Shown: positions 3,854 to 63,905 of the stretch, piece after piece
How positions within the stretch are numbered: the first letter of the stretch is position 1
Layout: the number at the start of each line of letters is the position of its first letter
Assembly: GCA_913009825.1 (NCBI GenBank)
Contig: CAJVYQ010000022.1
Coordinates: 3,870 to 67,869 of the forward strand
DNA: 64,000 nucleotides
Direction of reading: 5' to 3'
Source: an uncultured Deferribacteres bacterium
GTDB taxonomy: Bacteria; Zhuqueibacterota; JdFR-76; DREG01
Made by a program: the position numbers and the translations under genes
Notes under the pieces: generated by a model
Databases searched by the model: none
What the model was told of the DNA's origin: nothing
The model's input: only the letters and a program-made list of their open reading frames with translations

Positions 3854-5017
3854 GTGCGAACTGATCATATCCGGTTCAAGTGCCACCTGCTCAAAGCCTA
3901 ACCAACAAAGCAGTAGTGAACCTCACGTGTAAACTCAGTAATGAGAATGCGAAGCTGAGGGAATCAAGAATGCAGGCTGCGTCACTGAGCCCTGAAATAT
4001 GTATAGTTGTGGTTTTTTAGATAATTCCCGATCTGTATTAGGGAAGAAAGCCGACGGCTTTGAGCTGTCCGGAAGGCAGAAGTCTTGCAAGCGGGGCATA
4101 TTTTCACAGGGATAATCCGGGAACTTGTCTGCCCGTCCGCAGGCGGGAGAGAGCCAACTGTCTCCTTGCAAGATTGCGGTCATGGGAGTACCAATCCGGG
4201 AAGGGCAAACCCCTGGCTTTTGTAAGGTTTTGCTCTACCCTTACAAGAGAGTCCGAGCAGGAATACCACGAATAAGGGAGCATGCGAAGGTATCCGGTAG
4301 CGATAGCTAACAGCGAAGTGGCCGGAGAAGGGCTTTTGGCAGTCTTAGTGGAACATAGTAGTGAAGATTTGTGAGTCATTTCTCACACATCGTGCAGATG
4401 GGGAAGTATACCAAGCCCAAGCGACCCACTGTATCCGCCATCAGACCGGTGGACATTCCCAAAGACAGGAATGGCGAATGTGACACCGGGCATAACGAAC
4501 CACTTTAGGGAATTATAGGAAAAACACAGAGTTTAGCAGCCATATCACCGAAACTGGAGAGAATTGCAGAGCTTGCAGAAACAGATTCAGAGCGGCAGTT
4601 TATTTCCGCAGCACATTTGTTAAACGTTGAATTGCTTTACGAGTCATTCAGGCAATTACGTAAAGACGCTGCGAGTGGCGTATCCGGCGTAACAGCGTAT
4701 GAATATGCAGAACGCTTCGAAGAGAATCTTGGAAATCTACATGACAGATTACGGACGAAGCGTTATATTGCACCGCCGGTAAAAGGAGTGTTGATAGACA
4801 AGGAGAAAGGCAGGCAGCGTCCACTTGGCATCCCAGAGCATGCAATTTGAAAGCATTTGTAAGTGGGCGGCAAAGTTATGCGCTCTGTCCTTTTCGGACA
4901 GAATTATACAACCGCTGATAAGCTATCTCTTAGTGCGGTTGTATACCGAAGAACCGTATGTGGTAATCCCACAAGTACGGATCTGTGGGGGGAGCGGCGA
5001 GTAATCGCCGATTCTAC
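3854..5017 (+). mobile_element. Degenerate group II intron-like element (RT ORF truncated); boundaries approximate
   Basis: GTGCG at 3854 (typical intron 5' end); GC-rich non-coding structured stretch 3860-4520; reverse-transcriptase N-terminal fragment; 34-nt domain-V-like hairpin at 4950-4984 (GAACCGTATGTGG-TAAT-CCCACAAGTACGGATC, 2-nt bulge on the 3' strand); domain-VI-like hairpin 4993-5014 with a bulged A about 7 nt before the proposed 3' end. Confidence 0.5.
4525..4850 (+). pseudogene. Reverse transcriptase (group II intron-type) N-terminal fragment
   Basis: Translation ...LLNVELLYESFRQLRKDAASGVSGVTAYEYAERFEENLGNLHDRLRTKRYIAPPVKGVLIDKEKGRQRPLGIP matches RT domain 0/1 and stops right after GIP; the finger/palm domains and maturase region are missing. 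Confidence 0.55.
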
Positions 5018-8343: not shown

Positions 8344-9621
8344 CTAAGCCTTCCAGGTTTTTAAAATCCGGAAGTTTTTTTTACGTTCCGGAAGATTTTT
8401 TACGCCGGTCTTAAAGCCCAATATTTCCAAAGCAGAGGATAGGTTTCCATTTTCTCGCGGCAATATAACCGTTGTGTGATAAAATTCCCGGCGCACAGGA
8501 TACGTCTTCCGCAATTGTTCAAAATAATCCGCAGCGTCGGTTTCATTCAATTGTTGAATCTTCCGCAGATTAACATCATCCGCCCGGATATCGTAAATCT
8601 GTCTGACCGTGTCTGCCAATAAAGATTCAGGCCGGTTTTCCCCACCGGACAATCGGATCTTCTTTTTTTCCGGTTCGGGCAGAGAATTTTCCGGCCGCCA
8701 CCGGGGTCGAATGTGAAATCGCTTGCATACCGCCTGATAGACCTGAAACACACCGTTTACTTTCCCGTCCAGAGAATAGCCGGCAATATGCGGTGTGCCC
8801 AATTCAATTAACGGGAGTAATTCCCGGTCGATGGCCGGTTCATTTTCCCAGACGTCCAGCACGGCGGTTTTTAAGCAGCGGGTCTGCAGCGCTTTTTTTA
8901 CGGCTGCATTATCCACCACGGCGCCGCGGGAGGAATTGATAAGCACACTGCCCGGTTTCATTCTGGCAATCCTGTTTTTATCAAATAAGTGGTATGTTTT
9001 GTCCCGGCCGCTCATGGTTAACGGCACATGCAGTGTGATGATATCCGCCTGCAACAGATCGTTCAGCGGCAAATAATGCGGCGCGCCCGTTTGCCGGGCC
9101 AGAGGCGGATCATTGTGAAGAACGGTCATCCCCAACTCCGCGGCCTTCCGGGCTACAATTTTACCGATATTGCCCATGCCAACCACACTCATTTTCAGAC
9201 CCGACAACTGCCAATCAAACCGGACGGCCAGCTCGAGAACGGCCGCCATCACATATTCGGCCACCGAGTTGGCATTTGAACCGGCGGCGTTGGCAAAAGC
9301 AATTTTTTCTCCGGCAAGATACTTCGTATCTATGTGGTCAACTCCGATGGTAACACTGCACACCATTTTTATTTTTGAACCGTGCAGTAATCTCGCATCT
9401 ACTTTGGTGACAGAACGCACCAGAAGAATATCGGCATTTTTAAGCATGGCGGACTTTATCTCCCGGCCCGGAAAAAGCTCCACGCTGCCAATATGAGCGA
9501 AAGCATCGGCAGCAAAAGGGATGTTTTCATCAGCGACAATTTTTATGTTCAACAAGCCCTCCGCTATTTTGCGCTTGATAAATTGAATTTTTCGGTTTAA
9601 CTTCGTATTGTTTTCAATCAT
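8344..9621 (-). CDS. pdxB: Erythronate-4-phosphate dehydrogenase
   Basis: D-isomer 2-hydroxyacid dehydrogenase fold (GVGNIG NAD motif) plus the PdxB-specific C-terminal domain (TPHIAGYSLDGK, IYDIRADDVNLRKI). Start chosen at the ATG giving MIENN...; the track ORF extends further upstream. Confidence 0.85.
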   Translation of the reverse strand: MIENNTKLNRKIQFIKRKIAEGLLNIKIVADENIPFAADAFAHIGSVELFPGREIKSAMLKNADILLVRSVTKVDARLLHGSKIKMVCSVTIGVDHIDTKYLAGEKIAFANAAGSNANSVAEYVMAAVLELAVRFDWQLSGLKMSVVGMGNIGKIVARKAAELGMTVLHNDPPLARQTGAPHYLPLNDLLQADIITLHVPLTMSGRDKTYHLFDKNRIARMKPGSVLINSSRGAVVDNAAVKKALQTRCLKTAVLDVWENEPAIDRELLPLIELGTPHIAGYSLDGKVNGVFQVYQAVCKRFHIRPRWRPENSLPEPEKKKIRLSGGENRPESLLADTVRQIYDIRADDVNLRKIQQLNETDAADYFEQLRKTYPVRREFYHTTVILPRENGNLSSALEILGFKTGVKNLPERKKNFRILKTWKA

Positions 9622-10318: not shown

Positions 10319-10332
10319 CCCGGCGCAGAACG

Positions 10333-10390
10333 ATCTGAATTGAGCGATTGTAAGGCGATTCGCCTGTCTGCACAGGCAGGCTGAATCGCC
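10333..10390. repeat. Family-B repeat, truncated copy (CTGAATTGAGCGATTG end plus GGCGATTCGCCTG...CAGGCTGAATCGCC hairpin)
   Basis: Near-identical to the cores at 41359-41416 and, reverse-complemented, 56850-56911. Confidence 0.6.
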
Positions 10391-10982
10391 AACCGGATTT
10401 ATATTAAAAAATGGCAACAATTTAGTTTTTGATTCAATAAAACTTGTGAATAATCCAGGCCACATAGCTTACAAAAATGTTTCATCTGTGCGTATGTGTT
10501 TAAAAACCTTCTTTTCGTTTAAATGAAAATATAGTCACCCAGATGTTTTTTTGTTAAAATATTGTCATCTTTATGATTTTACTTGATATTTTCATTCCTG
10601 TTTTTTATTTTTTCAACACTACCGGATTTGTAAAATTATTTTCACGCTGAGGGTTCAGCAATAAATTCAGGGATTTCGAGAACTTTACTGTAAAATTTTG
10701 CCCGTTCTTTGTTTCACCTGAATTGAGCTATTCTAATGTCATCCAGAAGGAATCTTGTTGGTTTGTGCGTATAATCAACAAGATCCCCCTTGAATGACAA
10801 ACCCCCTGAGGAGTAGTTTTGAGTAAGGAATCGCTCAATTTAGGTGTCAATAAAATATAAAAAAGGTTGTCTTTTACCATAAGAAACAGTTACAGTGTGG
10901 GGTCTGGATCAGGATGATTTGTGAGTGATGGGGAAATTTAGTTTTACATCACAATTGTAGCTATGGAAGAGGAGGTGTTTCA

Positions 10983-13374: not shown

Positions 13375-13799
13375 ATCGAAATCTCCTGTTTTGTATCATT
13401 ATTAATATTTTGAAATTGTTAATTCAGTTCCTTTCATAAGGTAGATGTTTCGACTCCGTTCCGACAAAAATCAGCGGAACTTCCTGCCTGCTGCGGACGC
13501 GCGCTCAACACGACATGTTTAGAGGCGGTCACCCTGAGCGGAATCGAAGCGTGATTACAGCTAATTCATGAAGCAAACCCGGGTAGTTACATTTTTGAAT
13601 TCAATAAAATGAGTCTTGTCTTTTTTAATGCCGGTTTGAGACCTTTAAGGTTTTTACTAATTTACTGATTGTAAACATCCTATTCTCATGAATAATACCA
13701 GGATTAAACCTGCCGGGTCATTTTAACCGGTTCGCCTTATAATTTTTTCGTGTGTTTTGCGGGCTGAATAATTACCTTTTTTTATGACGGCGTGTCTCC

Positions 13800-14456
13800 T
13801 TAATTCAGTTGCCTGATTTTTTCAACATCGCTTATTTTTCCAATCACTACTAAAATATCACTGTCTTTGATAATATAATCCGCCGCCGGCACCGCCACTA
13901 AATTTTCCGGCACCAGTTCTTTAATGGCGATCACCTGGATATGATGTTTATTTCTAATATCCAGTTCCCGCAGTGTTTTGCGCAGGAATTTAGCCGGCGG
14001 CGCCAGTTCAAAGATGGAATATTCCGGTCCCAGACTTAAAGCATCCAGAATATTCGGATGAACCAGCGTTTGCACAATTTTCAGGGCGGCATCTTTTTCC
14101 GGGAAAATCACATCCGTGGCGCCAATCATATCTAAAATTTTCGCGTGGTCTTCCGTGATGGATTTAACAATAATCTGTTTTACTTTCATCTCTCTGAGGT
14201 AGAGGGTAATCAACACGCTCTGATCAATTTTATCTCCCACACTAACCACCGCAGCATCTATATCCGTTACACCCAACTGCTCCAGGGCATTTTTCTGCGT
14301 GGCATCGGCAATCACCGCTTTTTCTACAAAAGGTTTAATTTTCTCCACCTGATTTTCATCCGCATCGATTGCCAGTACCTCTACGCCATTTTCAGCCAGG
14401 AAACGTGCCACATAGTAGCCAAAACTTCCCAGTCCAATTACGACAAAACTTGCCAT
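13800..14456 (-). CDS. trkA: K+ uptake system NAD-binding subunit (TrkA/KtrA, RCK domain)
   Basis: Rossmann GLGSFG motif at the N-terminus followed by an RCK C-terminal domain; adjacent to trkH. Confidence 0.85.
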   Translation of the reverse strand: MASFVVIGLGSFGYYVARFLAENGVEVLAIDADENQVEKIKPFVEKAVIADATQKNALEQLGVTDIDAAVVSVGDKIDQSVLITLYLREMKVKQIIVKSITEDHAKILDMIGATDVIFPEKDAALKIVQTLVHPNILDALSLGPEYSIFELAPPAKFLRKTLRELDIRNKHHIQVIAIKELVPENLVAVPAADYIIKDSDILVVIGKISDVEKIRQLN

Positions 14457-14480
14457 GCAATACTCCTTGTAATGAAATTA

Positions 14481-15851
14481 TCAACCGACCATCAGGTTCT
14501 CTTTTGCGTAGCGGTAGGGTAATTTTGTCCCCCGCTCTCCGGTTATTGCCATCGCCAGGGTTATGGGCCCCAGGCGCCCGATATACATCAACAGAACCAA
14601 TAAAATACGTCCCGTGTTGGAGAAATCCGCGGTAATACCGGTGGAAAGCCCAACCGTACCGAAAGCCGAAACCACTTCAAACAGAATTTCCAGAAAACTT
14701 CCTTTGGTTTGAAGGTGGGAAAGTCCGCCCACTTCGGTAAACAACAGGATAAGCGTAAACATCGCAATTATGATGAAAGAAAACGCACCGATGGATACTG
14801 CTTTTGAAATTACATCCTGGTCGATGCGGCGATGGAACAGGTGAACATCCTCCCGGTTTCTGAATCTGGCCGCAACCATGGCCGTAAGTACGGCAAACGA
14901 AGTGGTTTTCATGCCGCCGCCGCAGGAAGCGGGAGAAGCGCCGATAAGCATCAGCATGGAAATTAGGAACAGGGAAGAATTGGAAACAGCGCCGATGTCC
15001 ACCGTATTAAATCCCGCGGTTCGACTGGTAACAGATTGAAATAAAGCCGTGAGAATTCTCGAACTCCATGGTAACAGCTGTAACCGGTTAAAAAAATCAA
15101 ACACAAAAAACAGCACAGCACCGGCTATGACCAACCAAAAACTGGTGTGTAAAACCACACGGGTGTGAAAACTGAACTGTGACCGGGCCATTGTCCTTTT
15201 GGTTCTCAGTTTTTTGTACAGGTCGAAAAGAACAATAAAACCAACGCCGCCCAAAAGGATCAGGATAATTGTTGTGAAATTGATAATAAAATCACCCTGG
15301 TAACGTACAAAGCTGTCCGGGAACAGGGAAAAACCGGCATTGCAGAACGCCGAGATAGAATGAAAAACCGAAAAATAAAGCGCTTTGCCACCGGGAAAAT
15401 CTTTGGAGAAGCGCAAAAAATAGAAAAGAACCCCAACCGACTCGATCACAATAGTGACGCCAAAAACTGATTTGAGCAGAGAAGCTAAATCTTTCACCGG
15501 CTGCTGACTGAGTGTTTGCTGCAATAATTCCCGGTCACGGATGCTGAATCTTTTCGAAATCAAAAAAATAAAAAATGTGGAAAAAGTCATAATACCCAAC
15601 CCGCCGATCTGGATCAGGGACATGATTACAATCTGGCCAAAAAGAGTAAGTTTTGCGCTGATATCGATGACGGTCAGGCCGGTCACGCAAGTTGCCGATG
15701 TGGCAGAGAACAACGCTTCGATGAAGGAGAGCGGGTTACCTGCCGCGGCATACGGCAATTTTAACAGCGCCGTGCCCAACAAAATGATTGTTGCAAAACT
15801 GAACAGAAGCAACTGTGTCGGTTTGAGCTTTCCCATCGCGTCAATTACCAC
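14481..15851 (-). CDS. trkH: K+ uptake system membrane subunit (TrkH/KtrB)
   Basis: Multi-pass membrane protein with repeated pore-loop glycine motifs (QIGGLG, NAGFS, GASPASCGGG, TVGLSTG). Confidence 0.85.
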   Translation of the reverse strand: MVIDAMGKLKPTQLLLFSFATIILLGTALLKLPYAAAGNPLSFIEALFSATSATCVTGLTVIDISAKLTLFGQIVIMSLIQIGGLGIMTFSTFFIFLISKRFSIRDRELLQQTLSQQPVKDLASLLKSVFGVTIVIESVGVLFYFLRFSKDFPGGKALYFSVFHSISAFCNAGFSLFPDSFVRYQGDFIINFTTIILILLGGVGFIVLFDLYKKLRTKRTMARSQFSFHTRVVLHTSFWLVIAGAVLFFVFDFFNRLQLLPWSSRILTALFQSVTSRTAGFNTVDIGAVSNSSLFLISMLMLIGASPASCGGGMKTTSFAVLTAMVAARFRNREDVHLFHRRIDQDVISKAVSIGAFSFIIIAMFTLILLFTEVGGLSHLQTKGSFLEILFEVVSAFGTVGLSTGITADFSNTGRILLVLLMYIGRLGPITLAMAITGERGTKLPYRYAKENLMVG

Positions 15852-17083: not shown

Positions 17084-17194
17084 GTAACTATGCAAATAAA
17101 TTGAAGGAACATCCCCCGTACCCCCGGAGTCCCCATTGAGTGGGTACGCAGGGTGAAAAACAACTTCCAATATGGTTTGTATCCTGAATAGTTA
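17084..17194. repeat. Small MITE-like element ending in CTGAATAGTTAC (family C)
   Basis: Begins GTAACTATGCA, ends CTGAATAGTTAC; internal CCCCCGTACCCCC...GGGTACG hairpin; related to the copy at 33767-33852. Confidence 0.55.
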
Positions 17195-17223
17195 CAATTT
17201 ATTTTTTACTCAAAATATCAAAC

Positions 17224-32026: not shown

Positions 32027-32056
32027 ACCGGTTTGTCGATCGGTTTAGCGAGATCA

Positions 32057-32093
32057 AACCTTCCGGGTTTTAAAAACCCGGAAGGTTTTTTTT
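32057..32093 (+). terminator. Rho-independent terminator
   Basis: AACCTTCCGGGTTT-TAAA-AACCCGGAAGG stem-loop followed by an 8-T tract, directly downstream of the 31274-32026 CDS. Confidence 0.8.
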
Positions 32094-32160
32094 ACGCCCA
32101 AAAGTTTTTTACTTGTCATTTCTGTGAAATCACCATATATTCATCCCTGTTTTATTTGAA

Positions 32161-32260
32161 CCTGAATTGAGCGATTATGAACTTCGGACTATCACTGTCA
32201 AGTGAAATGTCATTCAGTTTAGGTTGAAGTTACAAAAATAACTTCCTTAGACATTTCAGG
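32161..32260. repeat. Family-B-related repeat (CCTGAATTGAGCGATTA end, CATTTCAGG-like inverted end)
   Basis: Shares the CCTGAATTGAGCGATT terminus with copies at 10333, 41359 and 56777; the inverted end is degenerate. Confidence 0.4.
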
Positions 32261-32453: not shown

Positions 32454-33542
32454 ATGCAATTCGGCCTAATTGGTTATCTTAATTCCGGGAGGAAAACGAT
32501 TTTTGAACTGCTGACAGGCAAGCCTCTCAGCGAGAAATATTCCGGGAGTATCGGTGAAGCAATCCCCGGCATCGTCCATATTCGCGATCAGCGGCTGGAA
32601 AAACTGTCCCAACTTTATCAACCGCAAAAAACAACACCGGCAACTGTGGAATTCTTTTTAGCGCCGGACTTTGTCCACAAATCGGACAGCAGCGGGAAGA
32701 ATGCGCCGGCGGCCATGTTTCAGGTTCTCGAGCGGATGGATGTCATCGGTTTGGTTGTCCGGGATTTTGCTGACGATGCCGTTTTCTATGTGGAGGGAAG
32801 CGTGGATGCTGTTCGTGACATCCGCGTTATGCAGGATGAATTGTTGATTCATGATCAGATTTTTCTGGAAAAACGGATCGAACGGATTCGGAAAGATATG
32901 AAATCAAAAACAATGCCGGAAAAAGTAAAAGAGATGGAGTTACTGGAAAACCTGTTGCGTCAAGTGGAAGATGAAAAACCGCTGCGTTCATACTCCTTCA
33001 AAAAAGATGATTTGCAAACGCTGACCAGCTACCCTCTGCTCACCAGAAAGCCAATGATGATTATTCTCAATGTCAATGAAGACAAATTGTCCGGTTCAAC
33101 CAAATTAGCGGAATTGCAGGAAGAGTTCGCTGCGCATCGTTATACCTGGCTGCAACTGTCGGCAAAATTGGAAAATGAATTGTCACATCTGGACCCGGCT
33201 GATCGTGTCGAATTTTTTAAAGAATTGGGTATTGAAACATCGGCTTTGGAAAAACTGACACGGACAGCTTATGAAATGCTGGGTTTGATCTCCTATTTTA
33301 CGGTTGGCAAGGATGAAGTTCGATCATGGATGGTGCGCAAAGACAGCACCGCATCCCGGGCAGCCAGGGTGATCCACGCAGATATCGAACGCGGTTTCAT
33401 TCGCGCAGAATTGATGAAATATGATGATCTGATCCGTGCAGGCAGCGAGCAGAAAGTAAAAGACGCAGGGAAGTTTTATTTGAAGGGGAAAGATTACATT
33501 GTGGAAGATGGCGACATTTTCAGTTTTCGGTTTAATGTGTAG
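32454..33542 (+). CDS. ychF: YchF/Obg-like ribosome-binding ATPase homolog with atypical P-loop
   Basis: C-terminal TGS domain matches YchF (ISYFTVGKDEVRSWMVRKDSTASRAARVIHADIERGFIRAE...GKDYIVEDGDIFSFRFNV); G4 NVNE as in YchF. Walker A reads GYLNSGRKT rather than GxxxxGKS/T. Confidence 0.75.
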   Translation: MQFGLIGYLNSGRKTIFELLTGKPLSEKYSGSIGEAIPGIVHIRDQRLEKLSQLYQPQKTTPATVEFFLAPDFVHKSDSSGKNAPAAMFQVLERMDVIGLVVRDFADDAVFYVEGSVDAVRDIRVMQDELLIHDQIFLEKRIERIRKDMKSKTMPEKVKEMELLENLLRQVEDEKPLRSYSFKKDDLQTLTSYPLLTRKPMMIILNVNEDKLSGSTKLAELQEEFAAHRYTWLQLSAKLENELSHLDPADRVEFFKELGIETSALEKLTRTAYEMLGLISYFTVGKDEVRSWMVRKDSTASRAARVIHADIERGFIRAELMKYDDLIRAGSEQKVKDAGKFYLKGKDYIVEDGDIFSFRFNV

Positions 33543-33766
33543 ATAGGCGCGGAGCGATTTTTGCAAAAAATTTGGGAAATATTCTCGGTGTTACATCGAT
33601 TGCAATGTGACAAATGACAGCAGCAAAAAGGATGTGGACAATGAAGTCGCTGGGACTGTGAACATTCGATGAAGTGTATCCATTTTTCTTGCGATTTATA
33701 CAGTAAAGTTCTCCCGGAGATTTTTACTCATTAAGTTATCCGACTTAGAATATTCTTAACTATTCA

Positions 33767-33852
33767 GGTAAAGTGAGGAAACACCCCCATTGAGGAAAGT
33801 ACGGGGGTGTAAAAAAACTTCCAACACAATCACATATTATTCTGAATAGTTA
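33767..33852. repeat. Small MITE-like element with TAACTATTCAG / CTGAATAGTTA ends (family C)
   Basis: Inverted termini and internal ACCCCCATTGAGGAAAGTACGGGGGTG hairpin; related to 17084-17194. Confidence 0.55.
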
Positions 33853-33859
33853 TGAATAT

Positions 33860-34209
33860 TTGTAACTATTCAGTTCACGTCTGTCTGACACAGGCAGAAA
33901 GCACACGAAACAATCGAATGATCTCATCTAACTTTTTTCCTGTTTTTTTTTGAGTCTTTCGCGGGCTGCCTGAGTAGTGACAATACCGTAACACTTTAGT
34001 TTTTTGAACAAATCCGCTTTCTCTGCGCTCTCTGCGTCTCTGCGTTTTAAAGCGCCTGTTTTTTTAACGCAGAGACGCGGAGGGCGCAGAGAAATTGAAA
34101 AAATCGTCTGCCTATTCAACCCGCGAAACACACGAAATCATACGAATAGGACAAAATAGTTAACGATTCGCGTTTTTTAGCGATATTAGCGGGCAACCTG
34201 AGTAGTTAT
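33860..34209. repeat. MITE-like element, ~350 bp, copy 1 (12-bp terminal inverted repeats TTGTAACTATTCAG ... CTGAgTAGTTA)
   Basis: Near-identical over ~350 bp to 40705-41055, same orientation. Internal long palindrome CTCTGCGCTCTCTGCGTCTCTGCG...CGCAGAGACGCGGAGGGCGCAGAG. No ORF. Confidence 0.8.
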
Positions 34210-34312
34210 GAATATTTATATATTTTAAAGAATCATCTGCATGAGGATTTTTTAATCGACAAATATCAAACCTAAACTGAGTTATTCTTCTATAATCATA
34301 TTAAAAAAAAAG

Positions 34313-34414
34313 GTAACTATTCAGCATTGTGTTCTTTTATGCAGGGCGATTCGCTGAATCGCCTTAGCGAGACAGCGTCTCGCTCTACAAAGAATACTGA
34401 GCCTGAATAGTTAC
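34313..34414. repeat. Small MITE-like element with GTAACTATTCAG / CTGAATAGTTAC perfect 12-bp ends
   Basis: Ends read directly; internal GGCGATTCGCTGAATCGCC hairpin related to the family-B core. Confidence 0.6.
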
Positions 34415-34830
34415 GGAAAAAAGTGTTATTTTGGCTAAAAGGAGGGTTAATTATCAATAATAAAATGGTTTATGATATATGCTATAATATTATAATATGT
34501 TGACATTTATGCTATTTATTACTACATTTATTAATAATAAACGCATACAGACAATTATTATCATAATTATAACAATTGTCATGTGTACAATAATGAACAT
34601 AATAAACCCTCTGTAGTTAAGGATTCACAAAATTATTTCGCCGCACTTATCGGGAGAGATTAGAAGCAAGACAGGGGGATCTAAATTACCCGGAGACAGC
34701 AGATGTATCCCGGTTTGGCGAAACAACAGGAATTTACCACCATGCATGGCGGTATTTTTCTTTTTTACATCTGATTATGTAACTTCGTCTTCCTGATCTA
34801 TTTTCCACCATTGATTTTTATGGTTCCAAA

Positions 34831-35440: not shown

Positions 35441-36415
35441 GTGAAAATGAACGATTCGGAAATATTTGACAGTATCATCATTGGCGCCGGGCCGGCGGGG
35501 ATGACCGCTGCTATTTTTGCCCGGACAAAAAACCTGCATGTTCTGATCATGGAAGGAGGAAAGGCCGGAGGTCAGCTCATCAACCTCTATCCTTACAAGC
35601 CGGTTTATAACTATCCGGGTTATGCGCAAATAACCGCAGGCAAACTTGCGCGGCAAATGATTCGCCAGGTACAGCGATTCGATATCCCGATTGTTGAAAA
35701 TTCTCCCGTTCTTGACATCAGAAAATCAGAGAACGGCGATTTTGAAATCTCAGGAAAGCATTCATTGGTAAAAACGAAAACAATCATTCTGGCGAGCGGA
35801 TTGGGTTTAAGCGAACCGAGGAAATTGAATGTCCCCGGTGAGGATGAACTGAAAGGTTGCGGAATTGAATATACAATTGACGATATTGCGAGCTGGGCCG
35901 GAAAGGAGATCGCCGTTATCGGCGGCGGCAACAGCGCCATCGACAATGCCCTGCTTCTGCAGGAGAAAAATGCCGGAGTTACTTTAATCCACCGTTCGCA
36001 TAAATTAAGGGCAGAAGCAGCCAATGTGGAAAAATTACAACAGAACGATGCCCAAATGCTTCTGGGTTGGCAAACCGTCCGTTTCCAAAAAGAAAACGAT
36101 AGTAAAATTTCCATGAAAATGGAAAATAGCGTGAACAAACAAAGCATGTGCCTCACATTTGATAAAATATTGATTAACGCCGGTCTAAAACCGAACACGG
36201 AACTTTTAGAAAAGACAGGTTTGGAAAAAGCGGGCAAACAGATACAGGTAGATACCGAGATGCAGACATCTGTTCCGGGTATCTTCAGCTGCGGCGATGC
36301 TGTGTTCTATCCCGGCAAAGTCCGGTTGATCGTTACAGCCATCGGCGAGGCAGCAACGGCAGTGAACAGCATGCAAAAATATTTGAATCTGAAATACTCA
36401 CATCTGGGAAAATAA
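35441..36415 (+). CDS. Thioredoxin-reductase-like flavoprotein lacking the CxxC redox centre (TrxR-like FNR/YpdA-type)
   Basis: FAD motif IIGAGPAG and NAD(P) motif IAVIGGGNSA present; the position of the TrxR CATCDG disulfide reads TIDDIASWAG. Confidence 0.75.
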   Translation: MKMNDSEIFDSIIIGAGPAGMTAAIFARTKNLHVLIMEGGKAGGQLINLYPYKPVYNYPGYAQITAGKLARQMIRQVQRFDIPIVENSPVLDIRKSENGDFEISGKHSLVKTKTIILASGLGLSEPRKLNVPGEDELKGCGIEYTIDDIASWAGKEIAVIGGGNSAIDNALLLQEKNAGVTLIHRSHKLRAEAANVEKLQQNDAQMLLGWQTVRFQKENDSKISMKMENSVNKQSMCLTFDKILINAGLKPNTELLEKTGLEKAGKQIQVDTEMQTSVPGIFSCGDAVFYPGKVRLIVTAIGEAATAVNSMQKYLNLKYSHLGK

Positions 36416-37673: not shown

Positions 37674-39260
37674 TCAATTGCGACGACGATTCCGGTGGCT
37701 TCCCTGTTTTCTGTGTTTTGCCGGTGAACCTTTTTCTTTGCCGAATTTTCCTGTTGCCAGCGCTTTTTTTTGCTCTTCTCTGCCGCGGAATGTCTTTTCC
37801 ACAAAACAGGGTTCACCCGTGAACGGATCCCGCTCCGTCCAGTACATCACAGAAGAATAAGTAGACGGCGTGGGAGTAAATATTTGCACCTGCCGGGGTA
37901 CAAGTTTCAGGTTTTTAAGTGCGAAAGTTTTTAATGCGGTCATATCGGCAAACATACAGCCGGGATGTGCCGCGATGATGTAGTAAGTGAGAAACTGATC
38001 TTTTCCCGCCTCTTTCGTCAATCTGAAAAATAGTTCACGGAATTGCAATAAAATGTCCGCACCCGGTTTGCCCATCTTTTCCAGAACATGGCCTTCCGTG
38101 TGTTCGGGCGCTATTTTCATCTGACCGGAAACATGATGCCGGACTACTTCCCGGAGATATTTTTCACCGTTTTTTTCATCTGCCAAAATCATATCATGGC
38201 GGATGCCGGATGCAACCACCACTTTGCGAACACCTTTTATTTTGCGCAACTTTTGCAGAAGAGAAATTTGCCGATTATGATTGATGGGCAGTAGAGAGCA
38301 CATTTGGGGGTAAACACATCGCTTTTTAGCACAAACACCTTTTTTTAATTTTTTATCGCATTCGAAACCATACATGTTTGCCGTCGGCCCGCCAACATCA
38401 TGGATGGTGCCTTTGAATTTGGCATGTACAGCGATCTGTTTCGCTTCGGCAAGAATGGAATCATGACTGCGCCACCGCACAGTCCGGCCTTCGTGAACGG
38501 CGATAGCGCAAAAGTTGCATTCTCCGTAACAGCCGCGGTGAGCGGCAATGGAAAAACGGATGGTTTCCAACGCTTTTACGTCCTCCGGTTTTCCGTAGTA
38601 CGGATGGAGCTCCCGCTCGAAATTCAGGTTGTAAACGGCATCCAGTTCTTCGCCGGAAAGATAAACGGCGGGAGGATTTTGAATCAGGTAGCGGGAATCC
38701 TGTTTTTGTGCCAGCCTTTCAGCGGTGAGGGGATCGGTATTGCGATAAAAAAGATGGAACATTTCGGTAAACGCATTTTTATCAGCAGCAGCTTCCTGAA
38801 ATGAAGGCAATTTGATGCAGTTTTCCGGGATTTCCTTTGCAGCGTAACACAGGCCGTTCACCGTACGCGGGTCCCGGGAGTTTTTGAGTGCGTCTGCTAA
38901 TTGAACCACGGAACGTTCGGCCATACCATAAAGGAGATAGTCGGCTTTGGCATCGAACAGAATCGATTTTCTGATCTTATCGGACCAGAAATCGTAATGG
39001 GCAATTCGCCGTAAACTGGTTTCTATGCCGCCCAATACAATGGGTTTTGTATTTTTAAAATAGCGCCGGATCAGATTGCTGTAAACTATAACCGCACGGT
39101 CCGGCCGCCGGTTATTTTTACCTCCGGGAGTGTAATCGTCCCGCTTTCTTCTTTTCCCCCCGGCAGTGCGGTTGGCAACCATGGAATCGATGCAGCCGCC
39201 GGTGACGCCCCAGAATAGCCGGGGTTCGCCCAAACGGGTGATATCGGCAGCCGAAGTCAC
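37674..39260 (-). CDS. YgiQ-family radical SAM protein
   Basis: CxxxCxxC cluster (RGCYGECNFCAI) embedded in a YgiQ/UPF0313-like N-terminal domain; characteristic basic C-terminal tail (KHRKQGSHRNRRRN). Confidence 0.8.
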   Translation of the reverse strand: MTSAADITRLGEPRLFWGVTGGCIDSMVANRTAGGKRRKRDDYTPGGKNNRRPDRAVIVYSNLIRRYFKNTKPIVLGGIETSLRRIAHYDFWSDKIRKSILFDAKADYLLYGMAERSVVQLADALKNSRDPRTVNGLCYAAKEIPENCIKLPSFQEAAADKNAFTEMFHLFYRNTDPLTAERLAQKQDSRYLIQNPPAVYLSGEELDAVYNLNFERELHPYYGKPEDVKALETIRFSIAAHRGCYGECNFCAIAVHEGRTVRWRSHDSILAEAKQIAVHAKFKGTIHDVGGPTANMYGFECDKKLKKGVCAKKRCVYPQMCSLLPINHNRQISLLQKLRKIKGVRKVVVASGIRHDMILADEKNGEKYLREVVRHHVSGQMKIAPEHTEGHVLEKMGKPGADILLQFRELFFRLTKEAGKDQFLTYYIIAAHPGCMFADMTALKTFALKNLKLVPRQVQIFTPTPSTYSSVMYWTERDPFTGEPCFVEKTFRGREEQKKALATGKFGKEKGSPAKHRKQGSHRNRRRN

Positions 39261-40314: not shown

Positions 40315-40704
40315 ATGAGTTGTAACATATTTTTCAATGAACTAAAGTGTTACCGGAAAGGTTGTTTTTTGCGGGATATTTTTCTCCTGGACAGTAATAT
40401 TTTTATCATCAGAAAGACAAACAAAATAATGATCCCGCCGTTGATCAAATCTCCCCGCCGTTGCGCTTTGCGCATCTGCTCTGCGTGAAATTTCAGCAAG
40501 TCCAATTGAACGGAGATTCTTTCTTGCTCCCGGCTCAGCGAATCCAATTTTTTACTGATTATTTTACTTTTAGAGTGGGAGCCGCGCACCGTCTCCGGGT
40601 TTTGCGCGCCCGGCGTATCGGTTGTTGGCAGTAAAATTGTGTCCATCGGTTTCAAATTGAAAAGACCCTGAATTTTTTTTAAATTCCCGGTTGAGCAAAT
40701 CATT

Positions 40705-41055
40705 TTGTAACTATTCAGCTCACGTCTGTCCGACACAGGCAGAAAGCGCACGAAACAATCGAATGATCTCATCTAACTTTTTTCCTGTTTTATTTTTGTG
40801 TCTTTCGCGGGCTGCCTGAGTAGTGACAATACCGTAACACTTTAGTTTTTTGAACAAATCCGCTTCCTCTGCGCTCTCTGCGTCTCTGCGTTTTAAAGCG
40901 TCTGTTTTTTTAACGCAGAGACGCAGAGGGCGCAGAGAAATTGAAAAGATCGTCTGCTTATTCAGCCCGCGAATTACACGAAATCATACGAATAGGACAA
41001 AATAGTTAACGATTCGCGTTTTTTAGCGATATTAGCGGGCAACCTGAATAGTTAC
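40705..41055. repeat. MITE-like element, ~350 bp, copy 2 (ends TTGTAACTATTCAG ... CTGAATAGTTAC)
   Basis: Near-identical to 33860-34209; perfect 12-bp terminal inverted repeats in this copy. Confidence 0.8.
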
Positions 41056-41358
41056 ATCATTTTATTTATTTATGAATTTATTTTGCGTGCTAAACCGGAG
41101 ACAGCCTGTTTTGAGCATCATTACCTTTTGCCCGGCAGAACCCAATTTTCAGCGCTCAATTCATAAATAAAAAATAATAAAAATTATTTCGGTCAAACGC
41201 AATGGAAATATTGAAAAATTTGCAACTGTTCAGAGGAATGCAAACGGAAGCTAAAAGCGCTGTAAACAGGGCCGGTTCAGCGAATCGACCGACAAATCCT
41301 CTATTCGGGATCTGGTGTATTTTATGCGTTGCATGATTCCCAATCCGGATTATTTAGA

Positions 41359-41487
41359 CCTGAATTGAGCGATTGTAGGGCGATTCGCCTGTCTGCACAG
41401 GCAGGCTGAATCGCCAGACGTATTTGTATTAAAAATGAAAATCCGTTTAGTAACAAAAACAAGGTCAAAAACAAGAGAATCGCTCAA
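41359..41487. repeat. Family-B MITE-like element with 17-bp terminal inverted repeats (CCTGAATTGAGCGATTG ... GAATCGCTCAATTCAGG)
   Basis: Ends and internal GGCGATTCGCCTGTCTGCACAGGCAGGCTGAATCGCC hairpin read directly; same core as 10333-10390 and, inverted, 56850-56911. Confidence 0.7.
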
Positions 41488-41796
41488 TTCAGGTTAGATA
41501 TAACAAGTTAAGCTGTTGTTGGTAAAAAACAAATTTCTAAACGCAGAGTTCCCCAGGAACGTAGTGAATAGCAATTTCCCTTTTCCGGTAATTTCTGGTT
41601 TACAGCTATCTCTGATTGGAATAAACAGGTAAGATTTTCTCTGCGTATCTCTACGGACTCTGCGTTCATTATTTTTCTGAATCGTTCCGGCCAAATTAAT
41701 AAAATGGCCTCGGCAAGCCTGTACTTGATTTTTCCCATATTTTCCCCTAAATTGTAAAATAAAAATAGATACTTAAACCATTTTATAGGAAATTTT

Positions 41797-43167
41797 ATGC
41801 CGGACCTGTTTAATTCCGCGCCATCAAAAATAAAAAACGAAAATAAGCCAACGGAGCGGCTATCTCAACCGTTGGCAGACCGGATGCGTCCACAGAATAT
41901 GACGGAAATTGTCGGGCAGGATCATATTTTGGGCAAGGGGAAAATTCTGCGCCGGGCGATTGAAAAGGATCAACTGTTTTCCATGATATTCTGGGGGCCG
42001 CCCGGTGTGGGGAAAACGACCCTGGCAAGAGCCGTTGCCAATGAAACCCGCAGTGTGTTTTATTCTTTCAGCGCCGTAACCGCCGGTGTTAAAGAAGTAC
42101 GACAAGCGTTGGAAAAAGCAAAGTTTAATCTGCAAAAATTACGCAAACGGACGGTGTTGTTCATCGATGAGATTCATCGTTTCAACAAAGCGCAGCAGGA
42201 TGCGCTGCTGCACGAGGTGGAAGACGGCACTATTTACCTGTTTGGCGCCACAACCGAAAATCCTTCTTTTGAAGTGATTGTGCCTCTTTTGTCCCGGTGC
42301 CGTGTGTTTCAGTTGAATCCTCTGAATGATGCTGCTGTTCTGGCACTTTTAGACCGTGCTGTAGCGGAAGATGTCCATCTTGCCGAAAAAGAGATTGAAT
42401 TTGTCTCCACTGCGAAAAAGTTGCTGGTACAGTTTGCCTCCGGCGATGCGCGGATGGCGTTGAATGCGCTGGAACTGGCGGTAAAAATCTGTGCGCCGGA
42501 TAAAAGCGGAAATATAAAAATCACACCGGAAATTGTTACGGAAGCATTTCAAAGCAAGGCGCTGTTTTACGATAAAAAAGGGGAGTACCATTACGATGTT
42601 ATTTCCGCCTTCATCAAAAGTATCCGCGGGTCCGATCCGGATGCGGCGCTGTACTGGTTGGCGCGTATGATCCATGCCGGCGAGGACGCCAAATTTATCG
42701 CCAGAAGGATGGTTATTCTGGCTTCGGAGGACATCGGCAATGCAGACCCGCAGGCGCTGGTAGTGGCGACTTCCGGCTTTACCGCTGTAAATTATATCGG
42801 CATGCCGGAGGGACAATTGGTGCTGGCACAGGTTGCCACTTACCTGGCTTCTGCGCCCAAAAGCAACGCCTCCTATCTGGGAATCAAACAGGCGTTGGCG
42901 GATATCAAAAATGAAAAAATGCAGCCTGTGCCGCTGCATATCAGAAATGCGCCAACCGGTTTGATGGCTGAGTTGGGTTACGGTAAAGAGTACAAATACC
43001 CTCACGATTACGACGGTCATTTTGTGGAACAAAATTATCTGCCCGAGGGAATAAAGGATAAAATCTATTACAACCCTGCATCACAGGGATATGAAAAAAA
43101 ATTGAAAGAATATTTAGCGTGGATATGGAAAAAGAGAAAGGAAAAAGATACTGACGATGACAAATGA
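41797..43167 (+). CDS. rarA: Replication-associated recombination protein A (AAA+ ATPase)
   Basis: Walker A GPPGVGKTT, Walker B LFIDEIHRF, sensor and C-terminal MgsA/RarA-specific region. Confidence 0.9.
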   Translation: MPDLFNSAPSKIKNENKPTERLSQPLADRMRPQNMTEIVGQDHILGKGKILRRAIEKDQLFSMIFWGPPGVGKTTLARAVANETRSVFYSFSAVTAGVKEVRQALEKAKFNLQKLRKRTVLFIDEIHRFNKAQQDALLHEVEDGTIYLFGATTENPSFEVIVPLLSRCRVFQLNPLNDAAVLALLDRAVAEDVHLAEKEIEFVSTAKKLLVQFASGDARMALNALELAVKICAPDKSGNIKITPEIVTEAFQSKALFYDKKGEYHYDVISAFIKSIRGSDPDAALYWLARMIHAGEDAKFIARRMVILASEDIGNADPQALVVATSGFTAVNYIGMPEGQLVLAQVATYLASAPKSNASYLGIKQALADIKNEKMQPVPLHIRNAPTGLMAELGYGKEYKYPHDYDGHFVEQNYLPEGIKDKIYYNPASQGYEKKLKEYLAWIWKKRKEKDTDDDK

Positions 43168-56776: not shown

Positions 56777-56911
56777 CCTGAATTGAACAGTTCTCTTGTT
56801 TTCAAGCTTGTTTTTGTTACGAAGAAAATTTTCATTTTTAATGTAAATCCGGTTGGCGATTCAGCCTGCCTGTGCAGACAGGCGAATCGCCCTACAATCG
56901 CTTAATTCAGG
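56777..56911. repeat. Family-B MITE-like element, inverted orientation (CCTGAATTGAACAGTTC ... CAATCGCTTAATTCAGG)
   Basis: Terminal inverted repeats plus the reverse complement of the family-B core hairpin (GGCGATTCAGCCTGCCTGTGCAGACAGGCGAATCGCC). Confidence 0.7.
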
Positions 56912-57088
56912 TTTAAAAAAATTGAGGTAACCAAAATTATTCGTAATACTTTAGTTCTTTGAAAAAAGTTGATTTGTTGTTAGCCTCTTTTATTTTCTTT
57001 AAATTTCTTTCCGGTTCTTTTTATGGCTATTTAACCGGCAATAAACTATATTTTCCACGGAATTTTTTTTACAAACCATACAAAAGGT

Positions 57089-60818: not shown

Positions 60819-61089
60819 AATTTATTTCTCCTCTTTTGTGCTATATGCAGTTTTTGCAGTTGAGAAAAAAATATTTTTCCCTGAATTTCCATTTTTTTTA
60901 TTGATAAATCGTAATTATTCAGCTAGCTAAATTTAACCACAGAGGTCGCAGAGAACGCGGAGTTTTTTTAAGCATTTTTATACCTTCATCAGAAAATTTG
61001 CTGTTTTCCTGAATTTAGCAAACATAGAAAACTAAATTTATTTTCTCAGCGTCCTCTGCGCTCTCCACGGTGAATAGCTGCGCTAAATC

Positions 61090-63720: not shown

Positions 63721-63905
63721 ATTTTTTCCGGTTTTTTTATTTTTTACCTAAATTGAGTGATTCTTAGCTTGAAACAACCACCCAAAGAGTTTTGTCATTC
63801 TGCCTGCCCGACCACAGGCGGGAAAGAATCTCGCTAGTTCTGTTCACTAAACCAACAAGATTCCTACGGAATGACATTAAAATCGCCCAATTTATTTTTC
63901 AGTTA

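Follow-up and report, generated by a model that had tools for sequence, protein, structure and literature searches.

Miniature intergenic elements with the terminal motif of ISBst12-group insertion sequences in an uncultured Deferribacteres bacterium

Results

Two related insertions between housekeeping genes

The DNA analysed here, referred to throughout as the window, is a stretch of 64,000 nucleotides (positions 3,870 to 67,869 of contig CAJVYQ010000022.1) from an uncultured Deferribacteres bacterium. It contains two copies of a ~350-bp repeat, and Pfam matches of the flanking genes place both of them in intergenic DNA among housekeeping genes. Copy A lies 320 bp downstream of ychF (YchF), which ends at 33542, and is followed by a thioredoxin-reductase-like gene starting at 35441 and by a gene for a YgiQ-type radical SAM protein (37674-39260). 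Copy B is located ~740 bp upstream of rarA (RarA/MgsA), which starts at 41797. A 140-aa open reading frame (ORF) on the reverse strand (40350-40772) overlaps the left end of copy B. It is probably a 97-aa gene with its start at 40645 (MDTILLPTT...), in which case copy B lies 62 bp upstream of the start; the 97-aa protein has a hydrophobic C-terminus and no Pfam match. No integrase or invertase was found in the neighbourhood of the copies.

Copy A spans 33862-34209 (348 bp) and copy B 40707-41055 (349 bp), both on the forward strand. The original prediction, made from the letters of the window, described two near-identical elements in the same orientation, and so they proved to be, with 95.7% identity; they differ at 14 substituted positions, of which 12 are transitions, and by a single 1-nt indel. 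The limits it gave were essentially right, except that the leading 'TT' of its left terminus (TTGTAACTATTCAG) belongs to a target-site duplication, and the elements start at 33862 and 40707. When the copies were aligned together with 60-bp flanks, the likeness was found to begin abruptly at GTAACTATTCAG on the left and to end abruptly at CTGAATAGTTAC on the right. The anticipated 12-bp terminal inverted repeats are perfect in copy B (40707-40718 and 41044-41055; 13 bp counting the flanking base). In copy A the left end, GTAACTATTCAG, is intact, while the right end reads CTGAGTAGTTAT and has two substitutions, the terminal base among them. With this terminal base mutated, copy A is probably no longer mobile. 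The near-identity of the copies had been taken as a sign of recent mobilisation; given a divergence of 4.3% and the decay of the right end of copy A, the case for 'recent' is weak.

Each copy is enclosed by a perfect 8-bp target-site duplication, which the original prediction had proposed to look for, and the duplicated sequences differ: GAATATTT for copy A (33854-33861 and 34210-34217; 8/8 match) and ATCATTTT for copy B (40699-40706 and 41056-41063; 8/8 match). Between A and B, the 100 bp on one side are 29% identical and those on the other side 36%, which is the random level. With no relation between the flanks and a separate perfect 8-bp duplication around each copy, a larger segmental duplication with identical flanks, the outcome that the prediction had named against itself, is ruled out: copies A and B are discrete insertions.

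These are the only two full copies of the 350-bp element known, and they are dispersed with unrelated flanks, as befits non-autonomous DNA transposons of the MITE type. The terminal motif itself is more frequent, with TAACTATTCAG (at most one mismatch) occurring 11 times in the window against 0.81 expected, a number reached by 0 of 100 shuffled sequences. Two independent short-read contigs of the same organism, which come from an ENA marine metagenome (ERZ909563) and are 100% identical to the window, both stop within the element, one at window position 34001 and the other at 40984. Since dispersed repeats are expected to break assemblies, these endings argue for multi-copy status, and the repeated element explains the breaks in the short-read data for the organism. 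Searches for empty sites through exact-protein look-ups of the flanking genes returned only identical contigs breaking in the element, or nothing on record, so that mobility is read from the duplications and the copy number.

Shorter relatives and other repeats in the window

Copy A has a shorter relative on either side. A 98-bp element (33756-33853, forward strand) has the ends TTAACTATTCAG and CTGAATAGTTAT and lies between GAATATTC and GAATATTT, which match at 7 of 8 positions. A 102-bp element (34313-34414, forward strand) has perfect 12-bp ends and no clean duplication (AAAAAAAG and GGAAAAAA). Three GTAACTATTCAG-family elements (33748-34422) are found within 660 bp downstream of ychF. The single GAATATTT (33854-33861) between the 98-bp and the 348-bp element acts as the duplication for both, which argues for two successive insertions at the same 8-bp target; such double use of GAATATTT fits the AT-rich target consensus of the public loci described below.

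Further members of the family were identified on the forward strand elsewhere in the window. A 112-bp element (17084-17195) runs from GTAACTATGCAA to CTGAATAGTTAC between the flanks ATTTTATT and AATTTATT (7/8), and a degenerate member of 171 bp (60911-61081) runs from GTAATTATTCAG to GTGAATAGCTGC between GATAAATC and GCTAAATC (7/8). The hairpin-arm sequence of the 350-bp element (CGCAGAG/CTCTGCG) recurs in the 171-bp member, directly beside its ends. One right end, TTTCGTGTGTTTTGCGGGCTGAATAATTAC (13746-13775), is solo, with no left partner identified, and is related in sequence to the 350-bp element's arms.

A second MITE-like family, unrelated to the first, has a 17-bp inverted end (ACCTGAATTGAGCGATT) and copies of ~144 bp that are 87-96% identical. 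Its copies are at 41357-41501 (forward strand), 56777-56920 (reverse strand) and, truncated, 10332-10420; one of them shares an intergenic region with copy B, and one has TAG on either side, possibly a 3-bp duplication. A sister subfamily of this second family is present at 10721-10855 and 63746-63892, together with a solo end at 32145-32176. Short modules such as GGGCGATTCGC...GAATCGCC and CTGTCTG(A)CACAGGCAG recur across repeat families: in the 102-bp element (34340-34380), in the left arm of the 350-bp element (33880-33900) and in the second family (41380-41415). This suggests that the families have exchanged or captured hairpin modules. Separately, a hairpin-like motif, AAGCCTTCCGGGTTTTTAAAA(C/T)CCGGAAGKTTT, is repeated near gene ends at 8346-8405 and 32056-32095, where it may represent shared terminator-type hairpins.

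Anatomy of the 350-bp element

In the 350-bp form the palindromes are nested: two inverted arms of ~100-120 bp surround a 126-bp core that holds a hairpin. This central hairpin (40864-40940 in copy B, 34018-34094 in copy A) is the long CTCTGCG/CGCAGAG palindrome of the original prediction, and its 34-nt arms are 88% complementary across a spacer of 9 nt. The left arm of copy B (40707-40827) is closed by an internal right-end-like motif, CTGAGTAGTGAC (40816-40827, forward strand, 2 mismatches; 33970-33981 in copy A). Correspondingly, the right arm (40954-41055) is opened by an internal left-end-like motif, CTGCTTATTCAG, followed by CCCGCGAA (40954-40965, forward strand; 34108-34119 in copy A). 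The best match of the left arm is the reverse complement of the right arm (z = 12.8); the arms of copy B are also related in direct orientation (z = 6.8), and there is weaker self-inverted similarity as well.

This architecture may reflect a compound origin, in which two MITEs of one family, each ~100-120 bp long, ended up on either side of a 126-bp hairpin piece, with the outermost ends now moving the whole unit in the manner of a miniature composite transposon. The end-like motifs at both inner arm borders and the relation of the arms in direct as well as inverted orientation are consistent with such a history, as are two other kinds of element: the separate 171-bp member, whose ends also adjoin the hairpin arms, and the ~152-bp Desulfobulbia elements described below, which contain a third, internal copy of the end. 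Against it, the inner motifs have 2-4 mismatches, weakly palindromic arms in any long palindrome give inverted end-like motifs, and only two copies are available, with intermediate forms not found. On these sequence comparisons we hold a compound origin to be plausible at somewhat under even odds, and would treat it as a refinement of the MITE explanation, not as a true rival.

The element was predicted to lack an ORF, and a comparison of copies A and B revealed no conserved coding capacity. A 67-aa ORF of copy A is interrupted in copy B, and a 51-aa ORF with a TTG start, found in both, shows 5 non-synonymous against 2 synonymous differences.

A different reading of the palindrome is a structured non-coding RNA gene or a cis-regulatory RNA that has been duplicated by chance. 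The predicted fold is indeed very stable, at -141.7 kcal/mol (z = -10.8), but the opposite strand is nearly as stable (-129.9 kcal/mol, z = -8.9), and near-equal folding of both strands marks a palindrome in DNA, not a strand-specific RNA. No Rfam family matched the 350-bp element at gathering thresholds. At the E-value threshold, the only matches were to generic miRNA-precursor models, on both strands, with scores of 17-45 bits where the model thresholds are 60-211 bits. Scans for promoter-like and terminator-like sites found no enrichment in the element, the substitutions between the hairpins of A and B are not compensatory, and target-site duplications and IS-type ends are foreign to RNA genes. 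We therefore consider an RNA origin of the repeat very improbable.

The same ends in public genomes

The original prediction had proposed searches for the terminus and for the full element beyond the two copies, and these had opposite outcomes. The 350-bp family's own end, as a 20-mer, was absent both from GTDB representative genomes (TAACTAYTCAGGTTGCCCGC) and from JGI metagenomes (GCGGGCAACCTGARTAGTTA). BLAST of copy B against plasmids gave marginal matches of 31-36 nt to the hairpin arms only (E = 7e-3), and against phages gave none. In contrast, a search of 596 Gb of genome contigs for the exact end pair, GTAACTATTCAG-N(70-100)-CTGAATAGTTAC, found more than 116 stretches where ~0.1 would be expected by chance. 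Elements with the exact end pair are ~95-125 bp long and come from more than 100 species in at least a dozen bacterial phyla.

Among the matches listed, bacterial hosts include Desulfobacterota, Chloroflexota, Clostridia, Bacteroidota, Gamma- and Zetaproteobacteria, Bdellovibrionota, Verrucomicrobiota, Planctomycetota, Spirochaetota, Nitrospirota and KSB1, and archaeal hosts are Methanoregula, Methanothrix and Candidatus Altarchaeum. Two copies from Altarchaeum metagenome-assembled genomes have a common core and perfect 8-bp duplications (AAATATAA and ATTTAATA), with bin contamination being possible. The Methanoregula and Methanothrix copies have exact 12-bp ends without duplications, and here too the bins may be contaminated.

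The footprint of the public elements has the same length as that of copies A and B. Among the matches listed that had sufficient flank, perfect 8-bp duplications enclose 49 of 115 elements and duplications with a single mismatch another 17; in a shifted control, no element came within one mismatch. Other repeat lengths (6, 7, 9 or 10 bp) yielded only 0-2 perfect cases among the same 115 listed elements, compared with the 49 at 8 bp. The duplicated 8-mers of the listed matches are 75% A+T, against a background of 51% in the loci.

The interiors of these elements are diverse. Among the matches listed, 123 elements fall into 81 unrelated core groups, and several genomes have many copies of one core. 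Beyond position 12 the public elements share a preference for C at position 13 and nothing else. All-against-all clustering of ORFs revealed no gene recurrently linked to the 116 public loci, and no full-length IS was found beside solo ends in these loci, where the neighbouring ORFs are ordinary genes.

One conserved element of ~152 bp was observed across many species of Desulfobulbia and relatives, at eight of the loci. It contains three copies of the 12-bp end, two of them on one side and 44-46 bp apart, and its outer end pair lies inside perfect 8-bp duplications.

Autonomous ISBst12-group elements share the ends

ISDge4 of Deinococcus geothermalis belongs to the ISBst12 group of the IS66 family; it encodes a single 449-aa transposase, its transposition has been observed, and it has the ends GTGACTACTCAGCA and GTAACTGCTCAGCA with an 8-bp direct repeat (PMC12898284). 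These ends match GTAACTATTCAG at 10 of 12 positions. The Geobacillus kaustophilus plasmid pHTA426 is listed with one IS66/ISBst12 copy (PMC8024623). The pHTA426 element spans 14107-15741 (1,635 bp) and is bounded by GTATCTATTCAGCCC and GTAACTATTCAGCCCG, with GACGAGTT as its duplication. The protein it encodes (485 aa) matches the Pfam family DDE_Tnp_IS66 (PF03050, E = 1.9e-64), along with zf-IS66, and the NCBIfam model transpos_IS66 (NF033517) with 333.7 bits, where the cut-off is 180. In RefSeq this protein (L118, 14182-15639) is named 'IS66-like element ISGka4 family transposase', and the name clashes with the paper that defined it, in which, for the same strain, ISGka4 is an ISLre2-family element with 9-bp repeats. 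The pHTA426 protein is clearly of the IS66 family despite this label.

Homologues of the transposase were detected on 124 plasmids by tblastn. Eight further plasmid copies were fetched, and seven of them have paired GTAACTNNTCAG-like ends and 8-bp duplications that are perfect or match at 7 of 8 positions, with lengths of 1.47-1.74 kb. These seven come from four phyla (Geobacillus, Bacillus thuringiensis, Clostridium, Candidatus Chlorohelix, Acaryochloris, Deinococcus and Nostoc); the Pseudanabaena plasmid copy yielded no GTAACTNNTCAG-like end pair with a duplication. Metagenomes, scanned with the guidance of a profile, added 80 loci. Both ends lie on the contig in ten of them, and all ten have GTAACT[AG][CT]TCAG ends and are enclosed by 8-bp duplications matching at 7 or all 8 positions. 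In one metagenome copy (L140, 1,542 bp) both ends read exactly GTAACTATTCAG, and the L140 protein is 42% identical to that of pHTA426 (E = 3e-107).

The autonomous relatives are thus single-ORF IS66-family elements of 1.47-1.98 kb overall. The elements of pHTA426, pGS18 and L140 carry GTAACTATTCAG without a mismatch, and the motif also fits the group consensus, GTAACT[AG][CT]TCAG, seen in the eight copies on plasmids and the ten from metagenomes for which both ends and a duplication were found; IS66-family ends in general reportedly begin with GTAA in most cases. As in the MITEs, conservation among the IS copies stops after ~12-13 bp. A single DDE_Tnp_IS66 ORF between such ends was found in the reference elements only. 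Judged by sequence, the window elements have the ends and the 8-bp footprint of the ISBst12 group of the IS66 family.

Discussion

We conclude, with a probability of roughly nine in ten, that copies A and B are non-autonomous DNA transposons (MITEs) whose termini are the recognition sequence of the ISBst12 group, single-ORF insertion sequences of the IS66 family. The ends, the duplications, the discreteness of the copies, their multi-copy status and the identity of their ends with those of autonomous ISBst12-group elements were established directly. All MITE hallmarks of the original prediction were found, and the 350-bp elements display every testable feature of MITEs and of ISBst12-type ends. 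They are ordinary selfish elements, not a new kind of system, and as intergenic insertions they give no sign of a host function.

The elements of this organism most likely owe their mobilisation to an ISBst12-type DDE transposase acting in trans. Such an enzyme, encoded elsewhere in the genome or formerly present, would bind the 12-bp GTAACTATTCAG at both ends and insert the element into an AT-rich target by an 8-bp staggered cut, repair of which would yield the 8-bp direct repeats. To our knowledge, the transposition mechanism of single-ORF transposases of the IS66/ISBst12 group is poorly characterised. The original prediction had called for a transposase encoded elsewhere; its family can now be named from the ISBst12-group elements with the same ends, and tblastn with nine transposases found no ISBst12-type enzyme either in the 64 kb of the window or among the 116 public MITE-bearing loci, which amount to ~800 kb. 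The partner in the organism's own genome is thus assumed, not seen.

The window elements resemble the ISBst12 group (ISBst12, ISGst1, ISDge4 and the pHTA426 element) in the terminal motif and the 8-bp duplication; they differ in being 348-349 bp long and without a transposase gene, and in sharing nothing with the sampled IS copies beyond position 12-13. In blastn comparisons with 90 IS loci, no MITE matched subterminal IS sequence beyond 17-19 nt. As the likeness of MITE and IS is limited to the end plus 5-7 nt, origin as a simple deletion derivative is unsupported.

Hairpin-forming intergenic repeats of ~100 nt in many copies are also a description of REPINs, and the elements could on that account be REP/REPIN-like palindromes spread by a RAYT, a tyrosine (HUH) transposase of the IS200/IS605 type. 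Transposition of REPINs by RAYTs leaves no target-site duplications, however, whereas precise 8-bp duplications are the rule here, and the ends equal those of DDE-type IS66-family elements; we give this reading even less credence than that of an RNA gene. Least probable of all is that the repeats arose by segmental duplication or serve as recombination sites, such as an integron attC or an invertible segment, a reading for which the AAC...GTT in the ends, the attC-like size of the short elements and the clustering of three elements at 33756-34414 could be cited, but which is contradicted by the unrelated flanks with a separate 8-bp duplication for each copy, by Pfam matches that are to housekeeping genes with no integrase or invertase nearby, and by the lack of any recurrently linked gene across the 116 public loci. 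All four candidates (segmental duplication, attC, REPIN/RAYT and RNA gene) were rejected.

The MITEs of the window can be compared with those described in other bacteria. Correia/NEMIS of Neisseria, RUP of Streptococcus pneumoniae, MITEPsy of Pseudomonas syringae and MITECca01 of Cardinium are likewise small and non-coding, with terminal inverted repeats, target-site duplications, multiple intergenic copies, a strong capacity to form hairpins and ends shared with an IS family. Examples of bacterial MITEs that share their ends with IS families have been published (PMC3189936, PMC9769881). The window elements differ in that their ends and 8-bp duplication point to another transposase family, and the 350-bp form has an unusual nested architecture with internal end-like motifs.

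The public loci allow a broader proposal, to which we assign even odds: the GTAACTATTCAG end may define a very widespread 'superfamily' of miniature elements, in which MITEs with ISBst12 ends were repeatedly born from unrelated DNA, 12 bp sufficing, and of which the 350-bp compound would be one product. No description of such a superfamily, nor of MITEs using ISBst12-type ends, was found in the literature searched, where text matches to the 12-mer were to unrelated primers only; ISfinder and subscription papers may list some.

Looking ahead, annotators can recognise these elements by a simple signature, GTAACTNNTCAG...CTGANNAGTTAC together with an 8-bp AT-rich duplication. The ends point to the transposase family, and the elements offer a minimal substrate for the study of ISBst12-type transposases. 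A bare 12-bp motif appears to be sufficient to define mobile units across many bacteria and at least one archaeal lineage.
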